Assembly (NCBI GenBank): GCA_043757265.1 | Contig: JAYUQP010000018.1 | Location: 27,620 to 91,619, forward strand | Length of the DNA: 64,000 nt | Direction of reading: 5' to 3' | Origin: Bdellovibrionales bacterium | GTDB taxonomy: Bacteria > Bdellovibrionota > Bdellovibrionia > Bdellovibrionales > JAGQZY01 | Part shown: positions 48,130 to 57,944 of the stretch, one piece after another | Position numbering within the stretch: the first letter of the stretch is position 1 | Layout of the letters: each line of letters begins with the position of its first letter | Notes under the pieces: generated by a model | Told to the model about the DNA's origin: nothing | The model's input: only the letters and a program-made list of their open reading frames with translations | The model's database searches: none | Made by a program: the position numbers and the translations under genes

Positions 48130-49488
48130 TTAAAAAGTGCCGTGGCGAAGGATGTTGTCGAAAACGTCGCGGACTTGGCTGTCGTATTTAGTTGGGCCAT
48201 TGTACATAAACACGAATGCCTTTTGCTCACCATTTTTTTGATAGTATCCAGCAAGGCCGATAATTCCGTCCAAGTAGCCTGTCTTCGCACGCACTTCGGT
48301 GGTTTTGTCTTTTAAGCGTTTTTTGAGCGTGCCGTCCACACCCGCAATAGGCAGCGAAATCAAGAACTCTGGAAAAATCGCAGGCTGAGAGCGAAGGCCC
48401 ACTAACAACTGACCTAGATCCTGCGCTCGAAACTTATTGTCATGAGAAAACCCAGAAGGATTTTCAAAAACGAAATTCTTTTCTTTCCAACCGTTAGCGA
48501 CCAACCATTGACGAATTCGCGCTACACCTTTTTTGAGTGTGGCAGGTTTTTGTGGTGAAAGTGCTTTGGTGAGCATCTCAGCCACGTAGTTATTCGAAAA
48601 CTTTGCCATGTCCGTCACTATCTCGCGCAGGGATTTGCTTTTAAAGGTCACAAGCAATTGCGCAGTGGTGGGCGGTGATTTTTTTTCCACCGTTCCGCTG
48701 TATTCGATCCCTTGCTGGTTGAGAAATTTTTTAAAATTTTCGCCAGCCCAATAGTCAGGGTGAGAAATACTTTTGTAAATTACTTGCTCCACAGCGCCCA
48801 AAGCTATGGTGCCGCTCACTATCACCACGTCGTGTTTTTTTTGCGATCGACGCTCCACCCGCAAATCGGTTTTCGAGCCCGTCTTCACCTGATTTTTTAA
48901 CTCAATGTAGTCATTTTGTGGGTCGGCGTACACCACTGCTGCTTCGGCTTTTTTTCCGGGACGAACAAATATATTTACAGAATTCCAATTGAACGAAAGA
49001 GCTGCCACGGGGGCGTCGTAGGCTCTGTCCACGCGCACACTTTGCCGTGAGTCGGAAAAATACTCCTCGTCGAACAAGGAACTATCAACGTAAAGCTGAC
49101 CCTTAAGGGACTTTATCCCCGTGCGCTTGAGCTCGTTGACGATGGCCCAATAGTTTTCCGAAACCAACGAGGGATCTCCACCGCCTTGAAGGTAAAGGTC
49201 GCCTTTGAATTCGGACCCAGAGATCAGTTCCGACGCCCACACGCGGGTTTCGAATTGATGACCCAACCCCAGCTCGCCAATAACAGCTGCGGCTGTGGGA
49301 ATCTTACTAAGCGATGCCGGCGTCATAAGCACATCGGCGTTGTGCGTCCACGTTGTCTTTTCGCCTTCCATCCACACGGCGAAATGCTTTACGGGAATCT
49401 GGCTCCGCCGCAATATTCCGTCAATGGGCTCGGCACTCACGTTGATACTAATAAAGAATGTGAGCGCGATGAAAGCATATTTTGCCAT
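48130..49488 (-). CDS. dacB: D-alanyl-D-alanine carboxypeptidase/endopeptidase, PBP4 family (S13)
   Basis: An internal start gives the signal peptide MAKYAFIALTFFISINVSA. SxxK motif PASLSKI. The C-terminal KTG motif (VRAKTGYLDG) and ~450-aa size are typical of PBP4/DacB. Confidence 0.85.
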   Translation of the reverse strand: MAKYAFIALTFFISINVSAEPIDGILRRSQIPVKHFAVWMEGEKTTWTHNADVLMTPASLSKIPTAAAVIGELGLGHQFETRVWASELISGSEFKGDLYLQGGGDPSLVSENYWAIVNELKRTGIKSLKGQLYVDSSLFDEEYFSDSRQSVRVDRAYDAPVAALSFNWNSVNIFVRPGKKAEAAVVYADPQNDYIELKNQVKTGSKTDLRVERRSQKKHDVVIVSGTIALGAVEQVIYKSISHPDYWAGENFKKFLNQQGIEYSGTVEKKSPPTTAQLLVTFKSKSLREIVTDMAKFSNNYVAEMLTKALSPQKPATLKKGVARIRQWLVANGWKEKNFVFENPSGFSHDNKFRAQDLGQLLVGLRSQPAIFPEFLISLPIAGVDGTLKKRLKDKTTEVRAKTGYLDGIIGLAGYYQKNGEQKAFVFMYNGPTKYDSQVRDVFDNILRHGTF

Positions 49489-49548
49489 GAATATAATTAT
49501 GCCCGATCCCCTCTTGGCATTACAACATTTATTAGCTAAGCTTTTGGA

Positions 49549-51093
49549 GTGATAATTTCGGGACGTTGGCTGATTCATATTTTACTATTTTGTGCGTTTG
49601 TCTTCACGCTGACAAATTGTAAAAAGCGTTCGCAAACTTCACCCGACACCGTTGTAATCGGAATTCCAGCAGTACCTCCCACGCTCGATCCAAGAATTGC
49701 ACGAGATTCAATTGGCAGTAATGTACGCAGTCTTATTTTCACATCCCTTGTGCGAGTGATTACCGAAACCCCAACTTCGCCAATCAGCATTCAGGGCGAC
49801 CTTGCAGAGTCTTGGACGTATAAAAATAATGTTTATCATTTTAATCTGAAGCCGGGGCTCACCTTTTCGGACGGCGCGGCTATGACCGGCAACGATATTG
49901 AGTTCTCGTTTGCTGAATATCAGAAAGACTCTTGCCCGTTTTCTCCAGCCTTTAAGAAAATAAAAAAGGTTGTCGCTAAATACGATGGGGCCGAACATTT
50001 TGTCGATATTACCGTGGACCGTTTTGAAAGCACTTTTTATCTCGATCTAGCCATTGTTCATATGTTGCCAAAAAAAATTGTTCAGGCTCACGACAAAGAT
50101 TTTTACGAGCACCTTGTTGGTTCGGGTGCGTTTGAGTTGGTCACCGCTACTGACAATGAGCTTCTGCTGAAAGCACGGGCGAATCATTATCGAGCGCCGA
50201 AGATTAAAAAGCTTCAATTGAAAGTCATACGCGACGACAACACGCGGTTTCAGAAATTGTACAAAGGATCTGTGGACCTCGTACAAACCGATATTCCACT
50301 TTCTAAAATGGCAGTTTTTAAAAGTTCACCCCGCTTTGATGTGTACGACATGCCCGGCGCGAATGTGACCTACCTGCTATTTAATTTGCGTGATCCATTG
50401 TTAAAGCGAAAAGAAGTGCGCGCCGCCATCAACTACGCCATTAACCGCGCGGAGATTATCAAATACAAGCTTGAAGGCTACGCCACACCTGCAAGCACGT
50501 TTGTGATTCCGAGCACTCCCTATTACGATGCCACAATTCAACTTCCTAACACCGATATCCAAAAGGGCATCGAATTGTTGAAAGATCTGCCAAAGCCACT
50601 TGAGCTAGAACTCAAAACCTCCAACCAAAAACATGCCATCGAAAACGGTCGCATTCTCGCTCATCAGATCGAAAAAATTGGAATTTCGGTCCGCATGAAA
50701 AGTTTCGAATGGGGAACCTATTACGACGATATCTCAAAAGGTAATTTTCAACTGGCCACCATGCGCTTTGTGGGCATTTGGGACCCCGATCAGTACCGCC
50801 TGGCGTTTCATTCCGAACAGGTTCCACCCAAGGGAGCGAATCGCGCATTTTACATCAATCCGCAATTTGATGCACTGTTAGTGCAGGGACAGCAGATTGA
50901 AAACGTAGAGCAGCGCGTACAGCATTACAAACAGATACAAAAAATTATTTTGGCGGATATGCCAGTTCTCCCGCTGTGGTACGACCAGTATGTGGCGGTG
51001 GTTAATAAACGCATTAAGAACTTTGTGCCTTCGCCACTTGGTGGATTTCAGTTTGTTTTTAACATTGAGAAGGAATTGGAAAAAAATGAATAG
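49549..51093 (+). CDS. ABC-transporter family-5 (peptide/nickel type) substrate-binding lipoprotein, orphan
   Basis: 514 aa with lipobox LTNC. The overall pattern is OppA/DppA-like (LDPRIARDS..., GSGAFELV, DLVQTDIP). There are no permease or ATPase genes nearby. Confidence 0.82.
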   Translation: MIISGRWLIHILLFCAFVFTLTNCKKRSQTSPDTVVIGIPAVPPTLDPRIARDSIGSNVRSLIFTSLVRVITETPTSPISIQGDLAESWTYKNNVYHFNLKPGLTFSDGAAMTGNDIEFSFAEYQKDSCPFSPAFKKIKKVVAKYDGAEHFVDITVDRFESTFYLDLAIVHMLPKKIVQAHDKDFYEHLVGSGAFELVTATDNELLLKARANHYRAPKIKKLQLKVIRDDNTRFQKLYKGSVDLVQTDIPLSKMAVFKSSPRFDVYDMPGANVTYLLFNLRDPLLKRKEVRAAINYAINRAEIIKYKLEGYATPASTFVIPSTPYYDATIQLPNTDIQKGIELLKDLPKPLELELKTSNQKHAIENGRILAHQIEKIGISVRMKSFEWGTYYDDISKGNFQLATMRFVGIWDPDQYRLAFHSEQVPPKGANRAFYINPQFDALLVQGQQIENVEQRVQHYKQIQKIILADMPVLPLWYDQYVAVVNKRIKNFVPSPLGGFQFVFNIEKELEKNE

Positions 51094-51973
51094 ACCACTT
51101 ATTCTCTGCATCGACGACGACATTCATATTCTCGAAGCCTTGCAAAGAGATTTACGTCAGTCATTTGATATCGCGCTTGCTACCAATTTTTCTGATGCTC
51201 AAAAAGCATTTGCACAAAAAATTTCTATCGTGATCTGTGACTACAATCTCAAAACAACGAATGGCTTAGAAATACTGAATTGGGTCAAGGACACCCACCC
51301 GCAAACCCTGCGCGTTCTCCTCACTGGCGAAGTGGGCCTTACAGATATTTCAAGCGCCATGGAATCAAATCTGATTCACAAATTTATTCTCAAGCCGTGG
51401 GAGCCCGATCTTTTGCGGCTGCATATGCGTGAGGCCGAAAGCACCCTGCGACTTTTAAATGAGCGCGATAAATTTAAAGAGCTTTCCATTACCGATCCAG
51501 TAACCGAGCTTACAAACCATCGGTTTTTTCAAGAGAAACTACGCATTGAAATCCAAAAAGCCAAACAAACCAAAACCGCAGTGTCGCTAATTATGATTGA
51601 TGTGGATCATTTCAAAATTCTTAATGATCAGTTTGGTCACCCCCGGGGTGACCAAATACTTTCCCTGCTAGCGCAAAAGCTGGCGGGCGAAATGAAACCC
51701 AATTACTCGCTGTCGCGCTATGGTGGCGAGGAATTTGCGGCGATCCTTCCGAAAACACCTTCCGACTTTGCTTTTGCATTTGCAGAAACCCTGCGCACCT
51801 CGGTAAGTCATATCCCATCTCTGCAGTTTCGATTAAGCATCAGCCTGGGCGTCGCAAGCTATCCCGAGCACGGTCTAGACGCCGACGAGATCGTCGCCGT
51901 GGCAGACCAGGCGCTTTACCTTGCGAAAAAGCAGGGACGCAATATGACCGTCATCGGGCAAGACATCGCTTAG
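51086..51973 (+). CDS. Response regulator receiver domain - GGDEF diguanylate cyclase
   Basis: I chose the start at ATG 51086 (MNRPLILCIDDD). REC residues DDD, VICDYNL, LLTG and KFILKPW are present. GGDEF domain with active-site RYGGEEF; I see no RxxD I-site. 8-nt overlap with the SBP gene. Confidence 0.9.
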   Translation: MNRPLILCIDDDIHILEALQRDLRQSFDIALATNFSDAQKAFAQKISIVICDYNLKTTNGLEILNWVKDTHPQTLRVLLTGEVGLTDISSAMESNLIHKFILKPWEPDLLRLHMREAESTLRLLNERDKFKELSITDPVTELTNHRFFQEKLRIEIQKAKQTKTAVSLIMIDVDHFKILNDQFGHPRGDQILSLLAQKLAGEMKPNYSLSRYGGEEFAAILPKTPSDFAFAFAETLRTSVSHIPSLQFRLSISLGVASYPEHGLDADEIVAVADQALYLAKKQGRNMTVIGQDIA

Positions 51974-52402: not shown

Positions 52403-53377
52403 ATGAAAAAGCACGAATGGTTCTATGTCCTCGCCCCGATGTTCTGCACGGTAGCAATTGATCAGCTCACCAAGTGGTGGGCACTGGGACTTGCTGGCAC
52501 TCTCCAATACGGTCCTCTTGGTTTTGCCTTGCACTTTAACAAGGGCGCCATGCTTGGATTATTTTCAAGTCTTCCACCGATTTTAAGAATAGTCTCTCTT
52601 TCCACGGGTGGTGCGTTTTTACTTTTTACGTTTGTGATCATTCAATATTTGCTACCCATCAAATCGCTTCTTCTGAGAGTGGGCATGTCCACTCTTATGG
52701 GGGGGATCATTGGCAACGTGATCGATCGCACAATCCAAGGCTACGTGATTGATTTTATTTACTTTCAGGTGGGCAGCTGGCACTCGCCGGTGTTGAATCT
52801 TGCAGATGCTCTGCAGTGGGTGGGTTACATTTGCTTGGTAACCGCACTGTTAAAGGATGGCGAGCTGTTGTGGCCACAAAAGAATATTCGCAAATACTAC
52901 TGGATCAATCCCGCGTTTCAGTTGCGATATTGTTTCACGCTGATGTTTATCGGTTTAGGATTTGGTTTGATCGCCGGTGTGTTTAGCTATACCTTTTTGC
53001 GCTTTATGGTTGTGGACCTAATTGGAAACAATCAAAAGCTTTTGGATCAGTTTTTAATTCCTTTTGTACAAACATATACGGCATTTACTCTGGCGTTTGG
53101 TGCTTTTTTGTTTCTCATCGGTCGTACTCTTTCGCATCGTGTGGCTGGACCCGTTTATGCCTTTGAGCGCTTTGTAAAAAACTTTATCTCTGGCAAACCG
53201 CAAAAATTGAAACTTCGCAAAAGCGACGAGTTTTCACAATTGGAAAGTTTATCGCAAATGATGATGGACAATATGGCTGTGATTGAAAAATCAGAGCGCG
53301 AGATTGTTCCGATTCTCCCAAAAGGCTCGGCAAATCCCGGCCTCTCCGACCACCCAAATGTTGCTCAGGTCGGCTAA
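52403..53377 (+). CDS. lspA: Lipoprotein signal peptidase II fused to a C-terminal 2TM + HAMP-like extension
   Basis: 324 aa. Residues 1-155 carry LspA motifs IDQLTK, FNKGAMLGLF, GGIIGNVIDR and VIDFIYF...LNLADA (both catalytic Asp). Residues ~165-324 add two TM helices and HRVAGPVYAFERFVKNFISGKPQKLKLRKSDEFSQLESLSQMM, which is HAMP-like. Confidence 0.85.
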   Translation: MKKHEWFYVLAPMFCTVAIDQLTKWWALGLAGTLQYGPLGFALHFNKGAMLGLFSSLPPILRIVSLSTGGAFLLFTFVIIQYLLPIKSLLLRVGMSTLMGGIIGNVIDRTIQGYVIDFIYFQVGSWHSPVLNLADALQWVGYICLVTALLKDGELLWPQKNIRKYYWINPAFQLRYCFTLMFIGLGFGLIAGVFSYTFLRFMVVDLIGNNQKLLDQFLIPFVQTYTAFTLAFGAFLFLIGRTLSHRVAGPVYAFERFVKNFISGKPQKLKLRKSDEFSQLESLSQMMMDNMAVIEKSEREIVPILPKGSANPGLSDHPNVAQVG

Positions 53378-55323: not shown

Positions 55324-57099
55324 CTACGGATTGAGCTTTTTAAGACGAGCCATCATAGGCTCGATCTCTTCGAATCCGGTGAGAGTAAGATCTTTAACCA
55401 CTGTGCCGTTTTTATCAATAAATACGATTGTTGGTAGGCCGTAGACTTCATACCTCTTTTGCAGATCTGCAAGTTCTGGAAAATTTTCGCTGGCGTCGAC
55501 TTTTAAGAGCACAAAGTCTTTTGTAGCTTGAACAAACTGAGGCTTGGTAAACGTTTTTTCATCAAGCTCAATACACGCTGCGCACCAGTCGGCAAAAAAA
55601 TCGATGATGACGGGCTTTCCTTGCGCTTTTGCTTTGGCGAGCGCTTCGCCTGAGTAGTAGGTCCACCCATTTTTTAGCGCCGCTTTTTGCACCTCTCCCG
55701 CAGTGCGAGAGGCTGGTAACTTTAAAACAATCGGGCTTAAAACCATCAGCACGCAAAATACAAACGGCATGTAATGCCAAAACTTATGATCCACCTTTGG
55801 ATACACCTTAGCGATAAAGATAAATACCGCCGCAGCTGCCATGAGCGATAAGCAGATTAAAAACCAAGCTTCTGGTAAAAGAGGCTTGATGTAATAAAGC
55901 GCAACACCCAGCATGGTTGTACCTAGCACAAACTTAACCACGTCCATCCACGGGCCCGAGCGCGGAAGCTTTTTGAAGTACGAGCTGAATGTTCCCAAAA
56001 ATAAAAATAACATTCCCATACCCATAGCAAAGGTAAACAACAGCCAAAAACCAAGCACCATGTTTTGCGTCTTAGCGATATAGGCAAGTACGCCCACTAG
56101 CACAGGACCCACACAGGGACTCGCTACAATGCCGGCGATCAGACCAGAAGAGAATGCGCCCATATAGCCACGATTGTCGGTGGCGGTTTCTAGGCGACGG
56201 CTGATAAAATGCGGAAGACGAATTTCGAAATAGCCGTAAATACTCAACGCCATTAAAACAAAAATGACAACGAAGCCTAAGACCACAGGCTGATAGCTCA
56301 GAGCCTGACCAAACAGGGCCCCCGTTTTTGCGGCCACTACACCGAGTAGCGAATAGGTGGCCGAGATGCCTAGCACATAGACCAAACTTAAACTAAACGC
56401 CTGAGCCTTAGATAATTGCGATGCGCGGGCACCGATCACAGCCAGCGTGATGGGAATAAGGGGATACACACAGGGCGTGAGCGAAGTGAGAAATCCAAAG
56501 ACAAAGATAAGCACAAACGCCCACAGCAGGTTCTTTGAAATCTGCTGCTCGATCATTGAAGAGTCATTTACTGACGAGTTATTTACCGACACGTCATTTA
56601 CTGACGAGTCATTGGCTAAGGATTTTTTTTCGACTCTTGATTCAATGTTTAGCGGGAGTTTTACCTCAAGCTTGATCGGCGGCGAACAGTACTTGGTTGT
56701 GCAAGCGATGTATTCCAAATCCATGGCGAAGGTTTTTAATGGCAGTTCAATATCTTTTGGAATTTCGGCAAAAAAATCAAGCTTGGCTGTTTTTTGTAAA
56801 CCGCGGTGCTGCTTTCCCGAAAAATCAATAAACTCCACAAGTGGAGTCAATTGCAGTCCACCTAAAGCCATTCCGTCTGGCTCAAGGGGAAAAAGTTTAA
56901 GTTTATCCTCGTAAACCGAAAACCCTTGGTTGATGGCCACATCGATGGAAACCGTAATCCGACTTCCCGGTTTTATTTCCAGTGGCGATACGCGGGCCGA
57001 GGTCACCTTCATCGGTCGAGCGTCGTCAGACGGCGCAATGTCCAGAGCGTGAGTTGCACTGCCAAAAAGAAACAACGTTAAAATTAAAAGTGCTTTCAT
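55324..57099 (-). CDS. dsbD: Thiol:disulfide interchange protein DsbD
   Basis: N-terminal periplasmic alpha domain, a central CcdA-like TM domain (LTPCVYPLIP, ASPCVGP) and a C-terminal thioredoxin FFADWCAACIEL. I chose the ATG at 57099 (MKALLILTLFLFGSATHA); the track start is 57111. Confidence 0.9.
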   Translation of the reverse strand: MKALLILTLFLFGSATHALDIAPSDDARPMKVTSARVSPLEIKPGSRITVSIDVAINQGFSVYEDKLKLFPLEPDGMALGGLQLTPLVEFIDFSGKQHRGLQKTAKLDFFAEIPKDIELPLKTFAMDLEYIACTTKYCSPPIKLEVKLPLNIESRVEKKSLANDSSVNDVSVNNSSVNDSSMIEQQISKNLLWAFVLIFVFGFLTSLTPCVYPLIPITLAVIGARASQLSKAQAFSLSLVYVLGISATYSLLGVVAAKTGALFGQALSYQPVVLGFVVIFVLMALSIYGYFEIRLPHFISRRLETATDNRGYMGAFSSGLIAGIVASPCVGPVLVGVLAYIAKTQNMVLGFWLLFTFAMGMGMLFLFLGTFSSYFKKLPRSGPWMDVVKFVLGTTMLGVALYYIKPLLPEAWFLICLSLMAAAAVFIFIAKVYPKVDHKFWHYMPFVFCVLMVLSPIVLKLPASRTAGEVQKAALKNGWTYYSGEALAKAKAQGKPVIIDFFADWCAACIELDEKTFTKPQFVQATKDFVLLKVDASENFPELADLQKRYEVYGLPTIVFIDKNGTVVKDLTLTGFEEIEPMMARLKKLNP

Positions 57100-57125
57100 A
57101 ATAATCCCCATGATACAAGATTCGC

Positions 57126-57944
57126 ATGATCACGACCAGTATAAATTCTATTTTTATCGGCTTTGACACAGAGACCACCGGCCGCTACCCCATCGAATCT
57201 GAGATCTGCGAAATCGCCGCGGTTAAATATCTTAACGGTCAAATCATCGATAAATTTCAGTCACTCATCAAGCCAATCCGGCCAATGGGTGAAGAAGTGA
57301 TCAAAATACATGGGATCACGAACGAAATGGTGCAAGATGCGCCGCCGATCAAAGATGTGCTCCCACAGTTTCACAAATTTATACAAGATGGCACGCTGGT
57401 CGCCCATCACGCCCCGTTTGACATGGGGTTTATCTCTGTGGGCTTTGAAGCTATGGGACTTGAGCTTCCGTCGAAGCCGGTGATTTGTAGCAGCCGTCTG
57501 TCACGAAATGTGATCACCGATTCTAAAAACCACCGTCTGCAAACATTGATTCCGCACTTAGGTATCCCGCAAGGCACTGCTCATCGCGCTTTTGATGATT
57601 CCACAGCGTGTTTGGATGTGGCATTGCACTGTTTTGAAAAGGCGCAGTTAACAACACTTGATGCGATTTTCGAAATGCAAGGCGGAGCTCTCTATTGGAA
57701 AGACTATTCCATGGATGAGCTTAAATTTAAAACCAAAAGTTTAGGAATACTCATTGAGGCAATGTACCTGCGTACGCGAGTTCGCATGACTTACCTCAAT
57801 GGTTCCAAGCCCGGTCGCGAACGGGTCATTGAACCCATCGGCCTTGTGCGCTCCCCTGACGGAGACTTCTTCGTCGCCTACGATGACAGCCCCATCGCCA
57901 AGCGCTTTTACATCAGCAAGCTTGGCGAGGTTTCTAAAATTTAA
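57126..57944 (+). CDS. DEDDh 3'-5' exonuclease (DnaQ/epsilon-like) with a C-terminal WYL-like domain
   Basis: 272 aa. Exo I FDTETTG, Exo II HHAPFDMGF, Exo III HRAFDD. The C-terminal ~70 aa (RVRMTYLNGSKPGRERVIEPIGLV...FFVAYDD...KRFYISKL) fit the WYL-domain pattern. Confidence 0.82.
   Translation: MITTSINSIFIGFDTETTGRYPIESEICEIAAVKYLNGQIIDKFQSLIKPIRPMGEEVIKIHGITNEMVQDAPPIKDVLPQFHKFIQDGTLVAHHAPFDMGFISVGFEAMGLELPSKPVICSSRLSRNVITDSKNHRLQTLIPHLGIPQGTAHRAFDDSTACLDVALHCFEKAQLTTLDAIFEMQGGALYWKDYSMDELKFKTKSLGILIEAMYLRTRVRMTYLNGSKPGRERVIEPIGLVRSPDGDFFVAYDDSPIAKRFYISKLGEVSKI

Follow-up and report, generated by a model that had tools for sequence, protein, structure and literature searches.

The 64-kb window analysed here (64,000 nucleotides of contig JAYUQP010000018.1 from a Bdellovibrionales bacterium) contains an ATG-initiated gene of 324 codons plus stop (52403..53377, + strand) whose product combines LspA (signal peptidase II, SPase II) with two additional transmembrane (TM) helices, a HAMP-like segment and a C-terminal tail. 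Globomycin and myxovirescin are antibiotics that target LspA, which is seen as an unregulated enzyme that acts alone and as a monomer. The locus raises three questions: whether the enzyme part is intact, whether the extension is a HAMP module and what the two would do together. We give a probability of roughly 0.6 to the reading that the protein is a catalytically competent, lineage-specific SPase II paralog of the Bdellovibrionales (the Bd3246/Q6MIB9 family) with a complete 2TM-HAMP module fused to its cytoplasmic C-terminus.

The LspA (peptidase A8) core occupies residues 1–155 (52403..52867, + strand) and comprises four TM helices and the periplasmic beta-cradle, as judged from Pfam, from matches to Protein Data Bank (PDB) sequences and from Foldseek. 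Pfam family PF01252 (Peptidase_A8) matches residues 14–150 with 85.9 bits (cutoff 25, E = 3.9e-24), and the window protein covers profile positions 3–141 of 142. A phmmer search of PDB sequences aligns residues 13–153 to S. aureus LspA (6RYO) and residues 88–149 to P. aeruginosa LspA (PaLspA, 5DIR), with the motifs G-N-V-I-D-R, V-I-D-F and N-L-A-D in register. These alignments identify the two catalytic aspartates as D117 of V-I-D-F (codon 52751..52753, + strand; aligned to 5DIR and 6RYO) and D135 of N-L-A-D (codon 52805..52807, + strand; aligned to the sequences of the LspA structures), which correspond to PaLspA D124 and D143, respectively. D108 in G-N-V-I-D-R is conserved, yet it is not a catalytic residue.

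Residues D20, K24, N46, G48, G104, N105, D108, R109, V115, D117, F118, N132, A134 and D135 are invariant in an alignment of 40 homologs; among 232 relatives, D117 is retained in 227 and D135 in 231. The AlphaFold2 (AF2) model of the full-length protein, with a predicted local distance difference test score (pLDDT) of 75.9, matches 6RYP, 6RYO and 5DIR in Foldseek with a probability of 1.00, target TM-scores of 0.69–0.76 and a root-mean-square deviation of ~3 Å over ~150 columns. Since the signature residues are invariant, the structures match and the Asp dyad is kept, the LspA core looks complete and active, its catalytic competence being a prediction. The first claim of the sequence-only reading, an LspA with both catalytic Asp motifs followed by ~160 extra residues, is thus borne out by PF01252, the alignments and Foldseek. 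Core, beta-cradle, Asp dyad and signature residues are those of canonical LspA (5DIR, 6RYO/6RYP); however, the canonical enzymes have ~150–190 residues and end after TM4, whereas the window protein continues for another ~170.

This extension begins with a basic pre-membrane motif, continues with two TM helices and a helix-connector-helix and ends in a disordered tail. The cytoplasmic linker (residues 156–176; 52868..52930, + strand), defined by homolog alignment and hhalign, carries the basic pre-TM motif LWPxxNxRKxxWINPxFQLRY, in which W157, P158, R163, W167, Q173 and Y176 are invariant among homologs. The linker matches the N-terminus of a group of free-standing 2TM-HAMP proteins described below, whose R..FQW(R/K)Y motif is its counterpart in hhalign. 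TM5 (approximately residues 174–202; 52922..53008, + strand) was located by hydropathy and corresponds to an AF2 helix spanning residues 170–207 (pLDDT ~80–95). It is followed by a short periplasmic loop, VVDLIGNNQKLLDQFLIP (residues 203–220; 53009..53062, + strand), which is recognised by its acidic and uncharged composition between the TM segments and by an AF2 turn at 208–210; with ~18 residues, the loop is too short for a ligand-binding domain.

TM6 (approximately residues 221–243; 53063..53131, + strand), again placed by hydropathy, is continuous with the following helix. AF2 builds both as one helix, 211–262, which spans TM6 plus the next 20 residues and thus represents TM6 running into AS1, the first helix of the HAMP-like segment. 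The divergent HAMP-like segment itself (residues 244–294; 53132..53284, + strand) was delimited by landmarks, heptads and hhalign to the 2TM-HAMP family and contains AS1 (residues 249–263, G-P...G264), a connector (264–274) and AS2 (275–294, D-E-F...). The string that the sequence-only reading had quoted as HAMP-like is indeed present, at residues 246–288. The C-terminal tail (residues 295–324; 53285..53374, + strand) is modelled at low confidence (AF2 pLDDT <60). Models of the full protein and of residues 155–300 alone (pLDDT 82.8) predict the same elements, namely a short pre-membrane helix, TM5 and a turn, helix 211–262, a 16-residue loop (263–278), helix 279–290 and the low-confidence tail.

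The crystal structures 5DIR and 6RYO establish that both termini of LspA are cytoplasmic. Lys and Arg are abundant in the linker and in the segments following TM6 and the 18-residue loop is acidic, in agreement with a topology that has both termini inside. Taken together, the LspA topology, the two further TM helices and the Lys/Arg distribution put the HAMP-like segment on the cytoplasmic side, and the predicted product crosses the membrane six times, with its N- and C-termini on the cytoplasmic side and the HAMP-like hairpin directly beneath the membrane. The order of elements first read from the letters is correct: hydropathy and AF2 give two TM helices after the LspA core and then a helix-connector-helix in the cytoplasm, and no output domain follows.

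The extension is a stable part of the gene. A search of 5.8 billion proteins returned >1000 matches, the best 120 of which are all 300–375 residues long, carry the same extension, come from Bdellovibrionales/Pseudobdellovibrionaceae and are named only 'signal peptidase II'. The extension is kept at 50–90% identity in >120 protein clusters, far beyond chance. An extension-only profile retrieves 3580 cluster representatives at E ≤ 1e-3 and 327 at E ≤ 1e-10; among the best 150 of these representatives, 116 contain Peptidase_A8 and most of the others are fragments. In a collection of 185,579 species with one genome per species, 261 genome stretches encode a relative, so the fusion that was to be sought in related bacteria has been found there in quantity, complete B. 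bacteriovorus chromosomes included. Close relatives of the window are uncultured Bdellovibrionales/Pseudobdellovibrionaceae metagenome-assembled genomes (MAGs) with 89–90% protein identity. Core and extension are encoded by one open reading frame (ORF) in all 81 loci examined. Given these independent loci, with complete chromosomes among them, the idea that a frameshift or an assembly error joined two separate genes is refuted and can be set aside for all practical purposes; the >120 full-length protein clusters and the nine unique peptides reported for Q6MIB9 speak against it as well.

The fusion gene also occurs in MAGs labelled 'Bacillota bacterium' (L053) and 'Streptomyces griseus' (L076), with 51–52% identity to the query. 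Given this identity and their Bdellovibrio-like content, these are probably mis-binned contigs and not occurrences outside the Bdellovibrionota. Two candidates for LspA-less 2TM-HAMP-AhpC proteins (P0164 and P0208) were rejected, as they are in reality N-terminally truncated fragments that start inside TM4 of LspA.

Evidence on the nature of the extension comes from a second protein family. The flanks of related loci encode a free-standing protein of 217 residues (L011:19171-19941) that matches the LspA extension. It belongs to a family of ~100 clusters of Bdellovibrionales proteins, 200–230 residues in length and without a recognisable output domain (further members are L012:19261-20031, P0271–P0376, L081:6001-6615 and L082:2339-2953). 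NCBI names one member 'HAMP domain-containing protein', a precomputed PF00672 annotation is attached to 21 of 106, and Pfam HAMP matches all ten members tested (best E = 7.1e-6). hhalign gives the family 90.7–94.1% against a HAMP profile; this profile consists of six sequences and was validated by its retrieval of Af1503, CpxA, Tsr, HtrII and NarQ from the PDB. The LspA extension, in turn, aligns to the free-standing family with an hhalign probability of 97.7% (E = 1.4e-12), which becomes 99.2% (E = 5.7e-20, 132 columns) with larger alignments. A plain hidden Markov model (HMM) of the family matches the window protein at E = 2.8e-8 and finds 85 ORFs in 81 of 81 sources (80 loci and the window).

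The two groups share the basic R..FQ(W/L)(R/K)Y motif, TM1, a short loop, TM2, the (S/T)xRIxGP helix, the Gly and the L-x-L-R-x-x-D-E-F helix. They differ in that the free-standing proteins lack LspA, have a longer periplasmic loop (YFLNQNYDIF...ERxW), a connector that is two residues longer and a ~60-residue helical tail after the HAMP, and are matched by Pfam HAMP. Genes of the free-standing family have smpB, ksgA and tsaD as conserved neighbours, and dsbD and a PseudoU_synth_2 gene are found nearby. At two loci (L011 and L012), the free-standing gene is only 9 kb away from the LspA-HAMP gene.

The segment also carries the landmarks of a HAMP domain. It sits directly C-terminal to a TM helix as a helix-connector-helix of ~50 residues. 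In 150 relatives, AS1 opens with G-P (G in 150, P in 147), a Gly follows exactly 14 residues past the Pro in 133, and AS2 opens with D-E-F (D in 148, E in 80); in alignment numbering, the landmarks G, P, G109, R117 and D120 are kept in 133–150 of the 150. The same relatives show hydrophobic a/d periodicity at P+1, +4, +8 and +11 and at E+1, +4, +7/8, +11 and +15. Weak matches to sensor proteins point in the same direction: residues 222–291 of the window protein match the TM2-HAMP part of the NCBIfam model of the PorY histidine kinase (E = 0.019), and extension-only sequences weakly match TM-HAMP sensors, among them PorY (8 of 22), the chemoreceptor CtpM (4), DgcN/YfiN (3), VicK, AdeS and CreC. 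Homology to the 2TM-HAMP family, the weak sensor matches and the agreement in landmarks and heptads together rescue the HAMP label, and in our reading of the sequences the extension would be a divergent HAMP derived from a small 2TM-HAMP protein rather than a canonical HAMP.

The comparison with the sensor HAMPs of Af1503, Tsr, CpxA, NarQ and HtrII illustrates both sides. The window segment shares their cytoplasmic position after a TM helix, their length of ~50 residues, the Pro, Gly and D-E landmarks and the heptads. In contrast, its connector has 11 residues where the canonical connector has 13–14, it lies after an enzyme and not after a ligand-binding sensor domain, it is missed by PF00672 and by the validated HAMP profile, and the kinase, chemoreceptor or cyclase output of the sensors is absent; indeed, the window protein has no output domain at all after its HAMP-like segment.

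Biological data on the fusion come from Bdellovibrio bacteriovorus, whose ortholog is Bd3246 (Q6MIB9), identical to EP01_RS01465; the orthology rests on gene order. In strain Bd5 (L068), genes for a TetR regulator, an SLT transglycosylase and a PBP4-type D-Ala-D-Ala carboxypeptidase precede the fusion gene, and strain 109J has the matching order EP01_RS01450, RS01455 and RS01460, followed by RS01465, which is Bd3246 (PMC6561027). In the transposon sequencing (Tn-seq) study of Duncan et al. (PMC6561027, Data Sets S2 and S4), Bd3246 insertions were recovered after axenic growth in a host-independent strain, and predation fitness was lowered. The full-screen fitness (W) on V. cholerae was 0.19, and mini-Tn-seq gave W values of 1.27 (planktonic) and 0.26 (biofilm) on V. 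cholerae and of 0.0095 (planktonic) and 0.018 (biofilm) on E. coli, while the values for attachment (1.5) and prey rounding (0.85) were both normal (PMC6561027). The same study lists the PHYRE2 result '99% signaling protein' for Bd3246, and in strain 109J a separate gene, EP01_RS01995, is annotated 'signal peptidase II' and showed no defect (PMC6561027). In a 2025 proteome, Q6MIB9 is represented by 9 unique peptides and was detected throughout the time points of the predatory cycle, with a slight dip at 3–4 h (PMC12546842). RNA-seq supplements contained no entry for the gene.

That Bd3246 is dispensable in axenic culture, is needed for predation fitness and is accompanied by a second 'signal peptidase II' gene leads us to regard the fusion as a lineage-specific LspA paralog. 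The obvious alternative, that it is the housekeeping LspA of these bacteria with a lineage-specific appendix, would fit the intact signature residues, the expression of the ortholog at all stages and the near-universal presence of the family in the Bdellovibrionales loci retrieved, but a housekeeping enzyme would not be expected to tolerate the axenic insertions or to coexist with another SPase II gene, and the sequence itself departs from the canonical enzymes. The window protein scores 63.4 bits with the NCBIfam lspA equivalog TIGR00077 and thus misses its cutoff of 73.95, the PRK-type LspA equivalog models all remain far below their own cutoffs, and the fusion gene does not lie in the usual ileS-lspA context. 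We consider the housekeeping alternative improbable.

Several observations weigh against a lineage-specific paralog with a HAMP module. Pfam HAMP (PF00672) and HAMP_2 do not match the window protein at E ≤ 10, where Peptidase_A8 is the only Pfam family found; Pfam HAMP matches none of 150 relatives at E ≤ 1 and neither the two family consensus sequences nor the isolated segment. A search of PDB sequences with the extension profile retrieves no HAMP chain and nothing related at E ≤ 10. Direct hhalign of the extension with the HAMP profile finds the correct register, but the probability is only 1.4–7.8% (P = 0.004–0.035), and Foldseek of the extension monomer model finds nothing significant, with a WalK model (E = 1) and McpB (E = 7.6) at the top of its list. 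The 11-residue connector is two to three residues shorter than the canonical one and is without the hydrophobic residue of G-x-L. The HAMP label of the sequence-only reading thus stands in part, through homology to the 2TM-HAMP family, landmarks and sensor matches, whereas in the narrow sense of a Pfam match the extension does not score as HAMP.

By annotation, B. bacteriovorus has at least two SPase II genes, EP01_RS01995 being also labelled 'signal peptidase II', and paralog status was read from this annotation of strain 109J. The Tn-seq phenotype of Bd3246 stems from pooled, uncomplemented screens in a host-independent strain. Finally, LspA crystallised as a monomer, and dimerisation as well as any regulatory coupling through the HAMP are inferred.

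The missing Pfam matches and the shortened connector would fit an extension that is purely structural and serves to stabilise, oligomerise or localise LspA, with an ancestry that may be HAMP-like but without conformational signalling. Such a role would also suit the ~18-residue periplasmic loop without a sensing domain, the lack of an output domain and the fact that in most relatives the chain stops directly behind the second helix. Yet a simple anchor would not need landmark positions that are conserved in 133–150 of 150 relatives, and some relatives place enzymes (AhpC/TSA or methyltransferase) directly after the segment, as sensors do. A purely structural extension is therefore possible, although we think it unlikely.

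If the extension is a HAMP module, as we favour, the following arrangement is conceivable. A small 2TM-HAMP module (basic motif, TM1, loop, TM2 and helix-connector-helix) would have been joined to the cytoplasmic C-terminus of LspA. As in other HAMPs, the hairpins of two subunits would come together in a parallel four-helix bundle, making the enzyme a homodimer whose axis is formed by TM5, TM6 and the HAMP. In most family members nothing follows the hairpin, which therefore has no C-terminal output to relay to. It would most likely act on the LspA core itself, through packing of TM5 and TM6 that tunes access or activity, or else serve as a platform for dimerisation or docking. The predator would thereby have an SPase II that can be controlled separately and that handles the lipoproteins it requires while growing on prey. 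In a stronger version of this mechanism, the HAMP would work 'backwards' or in cis to gate a membrane protease, such that the conformational state of the LspA dimer, set by a membrane condition or a cytoplasmic partner, switches the cleavage of lipoprotein signal peptides on or off; we regard this version as rather doubtful.

The window protein differs from many relatives in its C-terminus. In distant relatives, most proteins end 0–10 residues after AS2, whereas the window protein has a disordered tail of 30 residues. This tail contains the motif PILPKG (residues 303–308; 53309-53326, + strand), a case of P-[IL]-L-P-x-G located ~51 residues past the G-P of AS1. The motif is present in 67 of 120 close homologs versus 1 of 121 distant representatives, and it may serve for docking in this clade. 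After the HAMP-like segment, about 12 of 82 representatives have AhpC/TSA, methyltransferase or long tails. Among 150 representatives, 13 have a redoxin of the AhpC/TSA type that contains a CPLC motif and is predicted to be cytoplasmic (among them P0153, P0156, P0190 and P0157); other additions are an S-adenosylmethionine (SAM) methyltransferase in three (among them P0128), proline-rich tails of 300 residues (P0127) and, in one case, a Peptidase_S74 endosialidase-chaperone domain (P0135).

These additions invite a reversal of roles, in which the LspA-like part would provide the input through its occupancy by substrate or lipid. TM5/TM6 and the HAMP as transmitter would pass this on, either to a fused domain in some relatives or to a partner in the cytoplasm that the tail recruits, so that the protein would sense lipoprotein traffic. 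The order membrane module-HAMP-enzyme in the 13 AhpC/TSA and the methyltransferase fusions, the clade-specific PILPxG motif and a response-regulator-GGDEF gene directly upstream in 30 of 80 loci could all be read in this way. Most members are tailless, however, the tail motif is confined to one clade and no partner is known, while the invariant catalytic dyad argues for proteolysis as the primary role. We consequently deem a sensor of this kind quite improbable and retain the interpretation of the protein as a competent protease with an appended HAMP module.

In the window, the response-regulator-GGDEF (diguanylate cyclase) gene at 51089-51973 (+) lies directly upstream of the fusion gene, separated by a 430-bp spacer. 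Its longest ORF starts at 50990 and overlaps the end of the SBP_bac_5 gene (49549-51093) by ~100 nucleotides; this start is probably too far upstream, and the Pfam-supported protein begins near 51089. In B. bacteriovorus, a divergent PBP4 gene replaces the response-regulator-GGDEF gene as the upstream neighbour. The wider surroundings form a loose cell-envelope neighbourhood, with an adjacent PBP4/DacB (Peptidase_S13) gene in 69 of 80 loci, an RNase_T exonuclease-WYL fusion in 60 and DsbD in 39. The cell-envelope neighbours in the window are located at 48130-49578 (−), 55324-57111 (−) and 57126-57944 (+), in an order rearranged relative to Bdellovibrio.

A tblastn search of the 64-kb window revealed no second LspA and no other copy of the extension, and an HMM of the LspA core applied to the 80 flanking loci found only the fusion gene itself. 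A scan for promoters and terminators around the gene gave nothing above the expectation from shuffled sequence, and neither a tRNA gene nor an Rfam family at the gathering threshold was found in the window. Its G+C content is 45.7%.

A parallel to a dispensable SPase II copy in a predator is found in Myxococcus xanthus, which has four lspA genes, two of them tied to the TA/myxovirescin cluster and conferring self-resistance. In both predators more than one SPase II is kept and one copy is dispensable for growth. To our knowledge, the M. xanthus paralogs have no 2TM-HAMP extension, and they are tied to an antibiotic cluster, whereas none adjoins the fusion gene. Our literature searches found no main text that describes an LspA-HAMP architecture, the nearest being a line in a supplementary table. 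The initial impression of an undescribed architecture holds in this respect, but the architecture is common (261 genome stretches) and has been annotated only as 'signal peptidase II'.

The joining of a conserved LspA to a HAMP-type transducer suggests that lipoprotein maturation can be dimer-dependent or under conformational control. It would add an intramembrane protease to the kinases, cyclases and chemoreceptors with which HAMP domains are combined, and it brings to light a related, uncharacterised family of small 2TM-HAMP proteins without output. Bd3246 is a tractable representative, being non-essential and detected as a protein, with mutants that show a prey-dependent defect in predation fitness. 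The fusion is conserved among Bdellovibrio-like predators; if the gating version of the mechanism is true, they would possess a regulated lipoprotein maturation dedicated to predation, and the fusion would be the first HAMP with an upstream intramembrane enzyme as its output.

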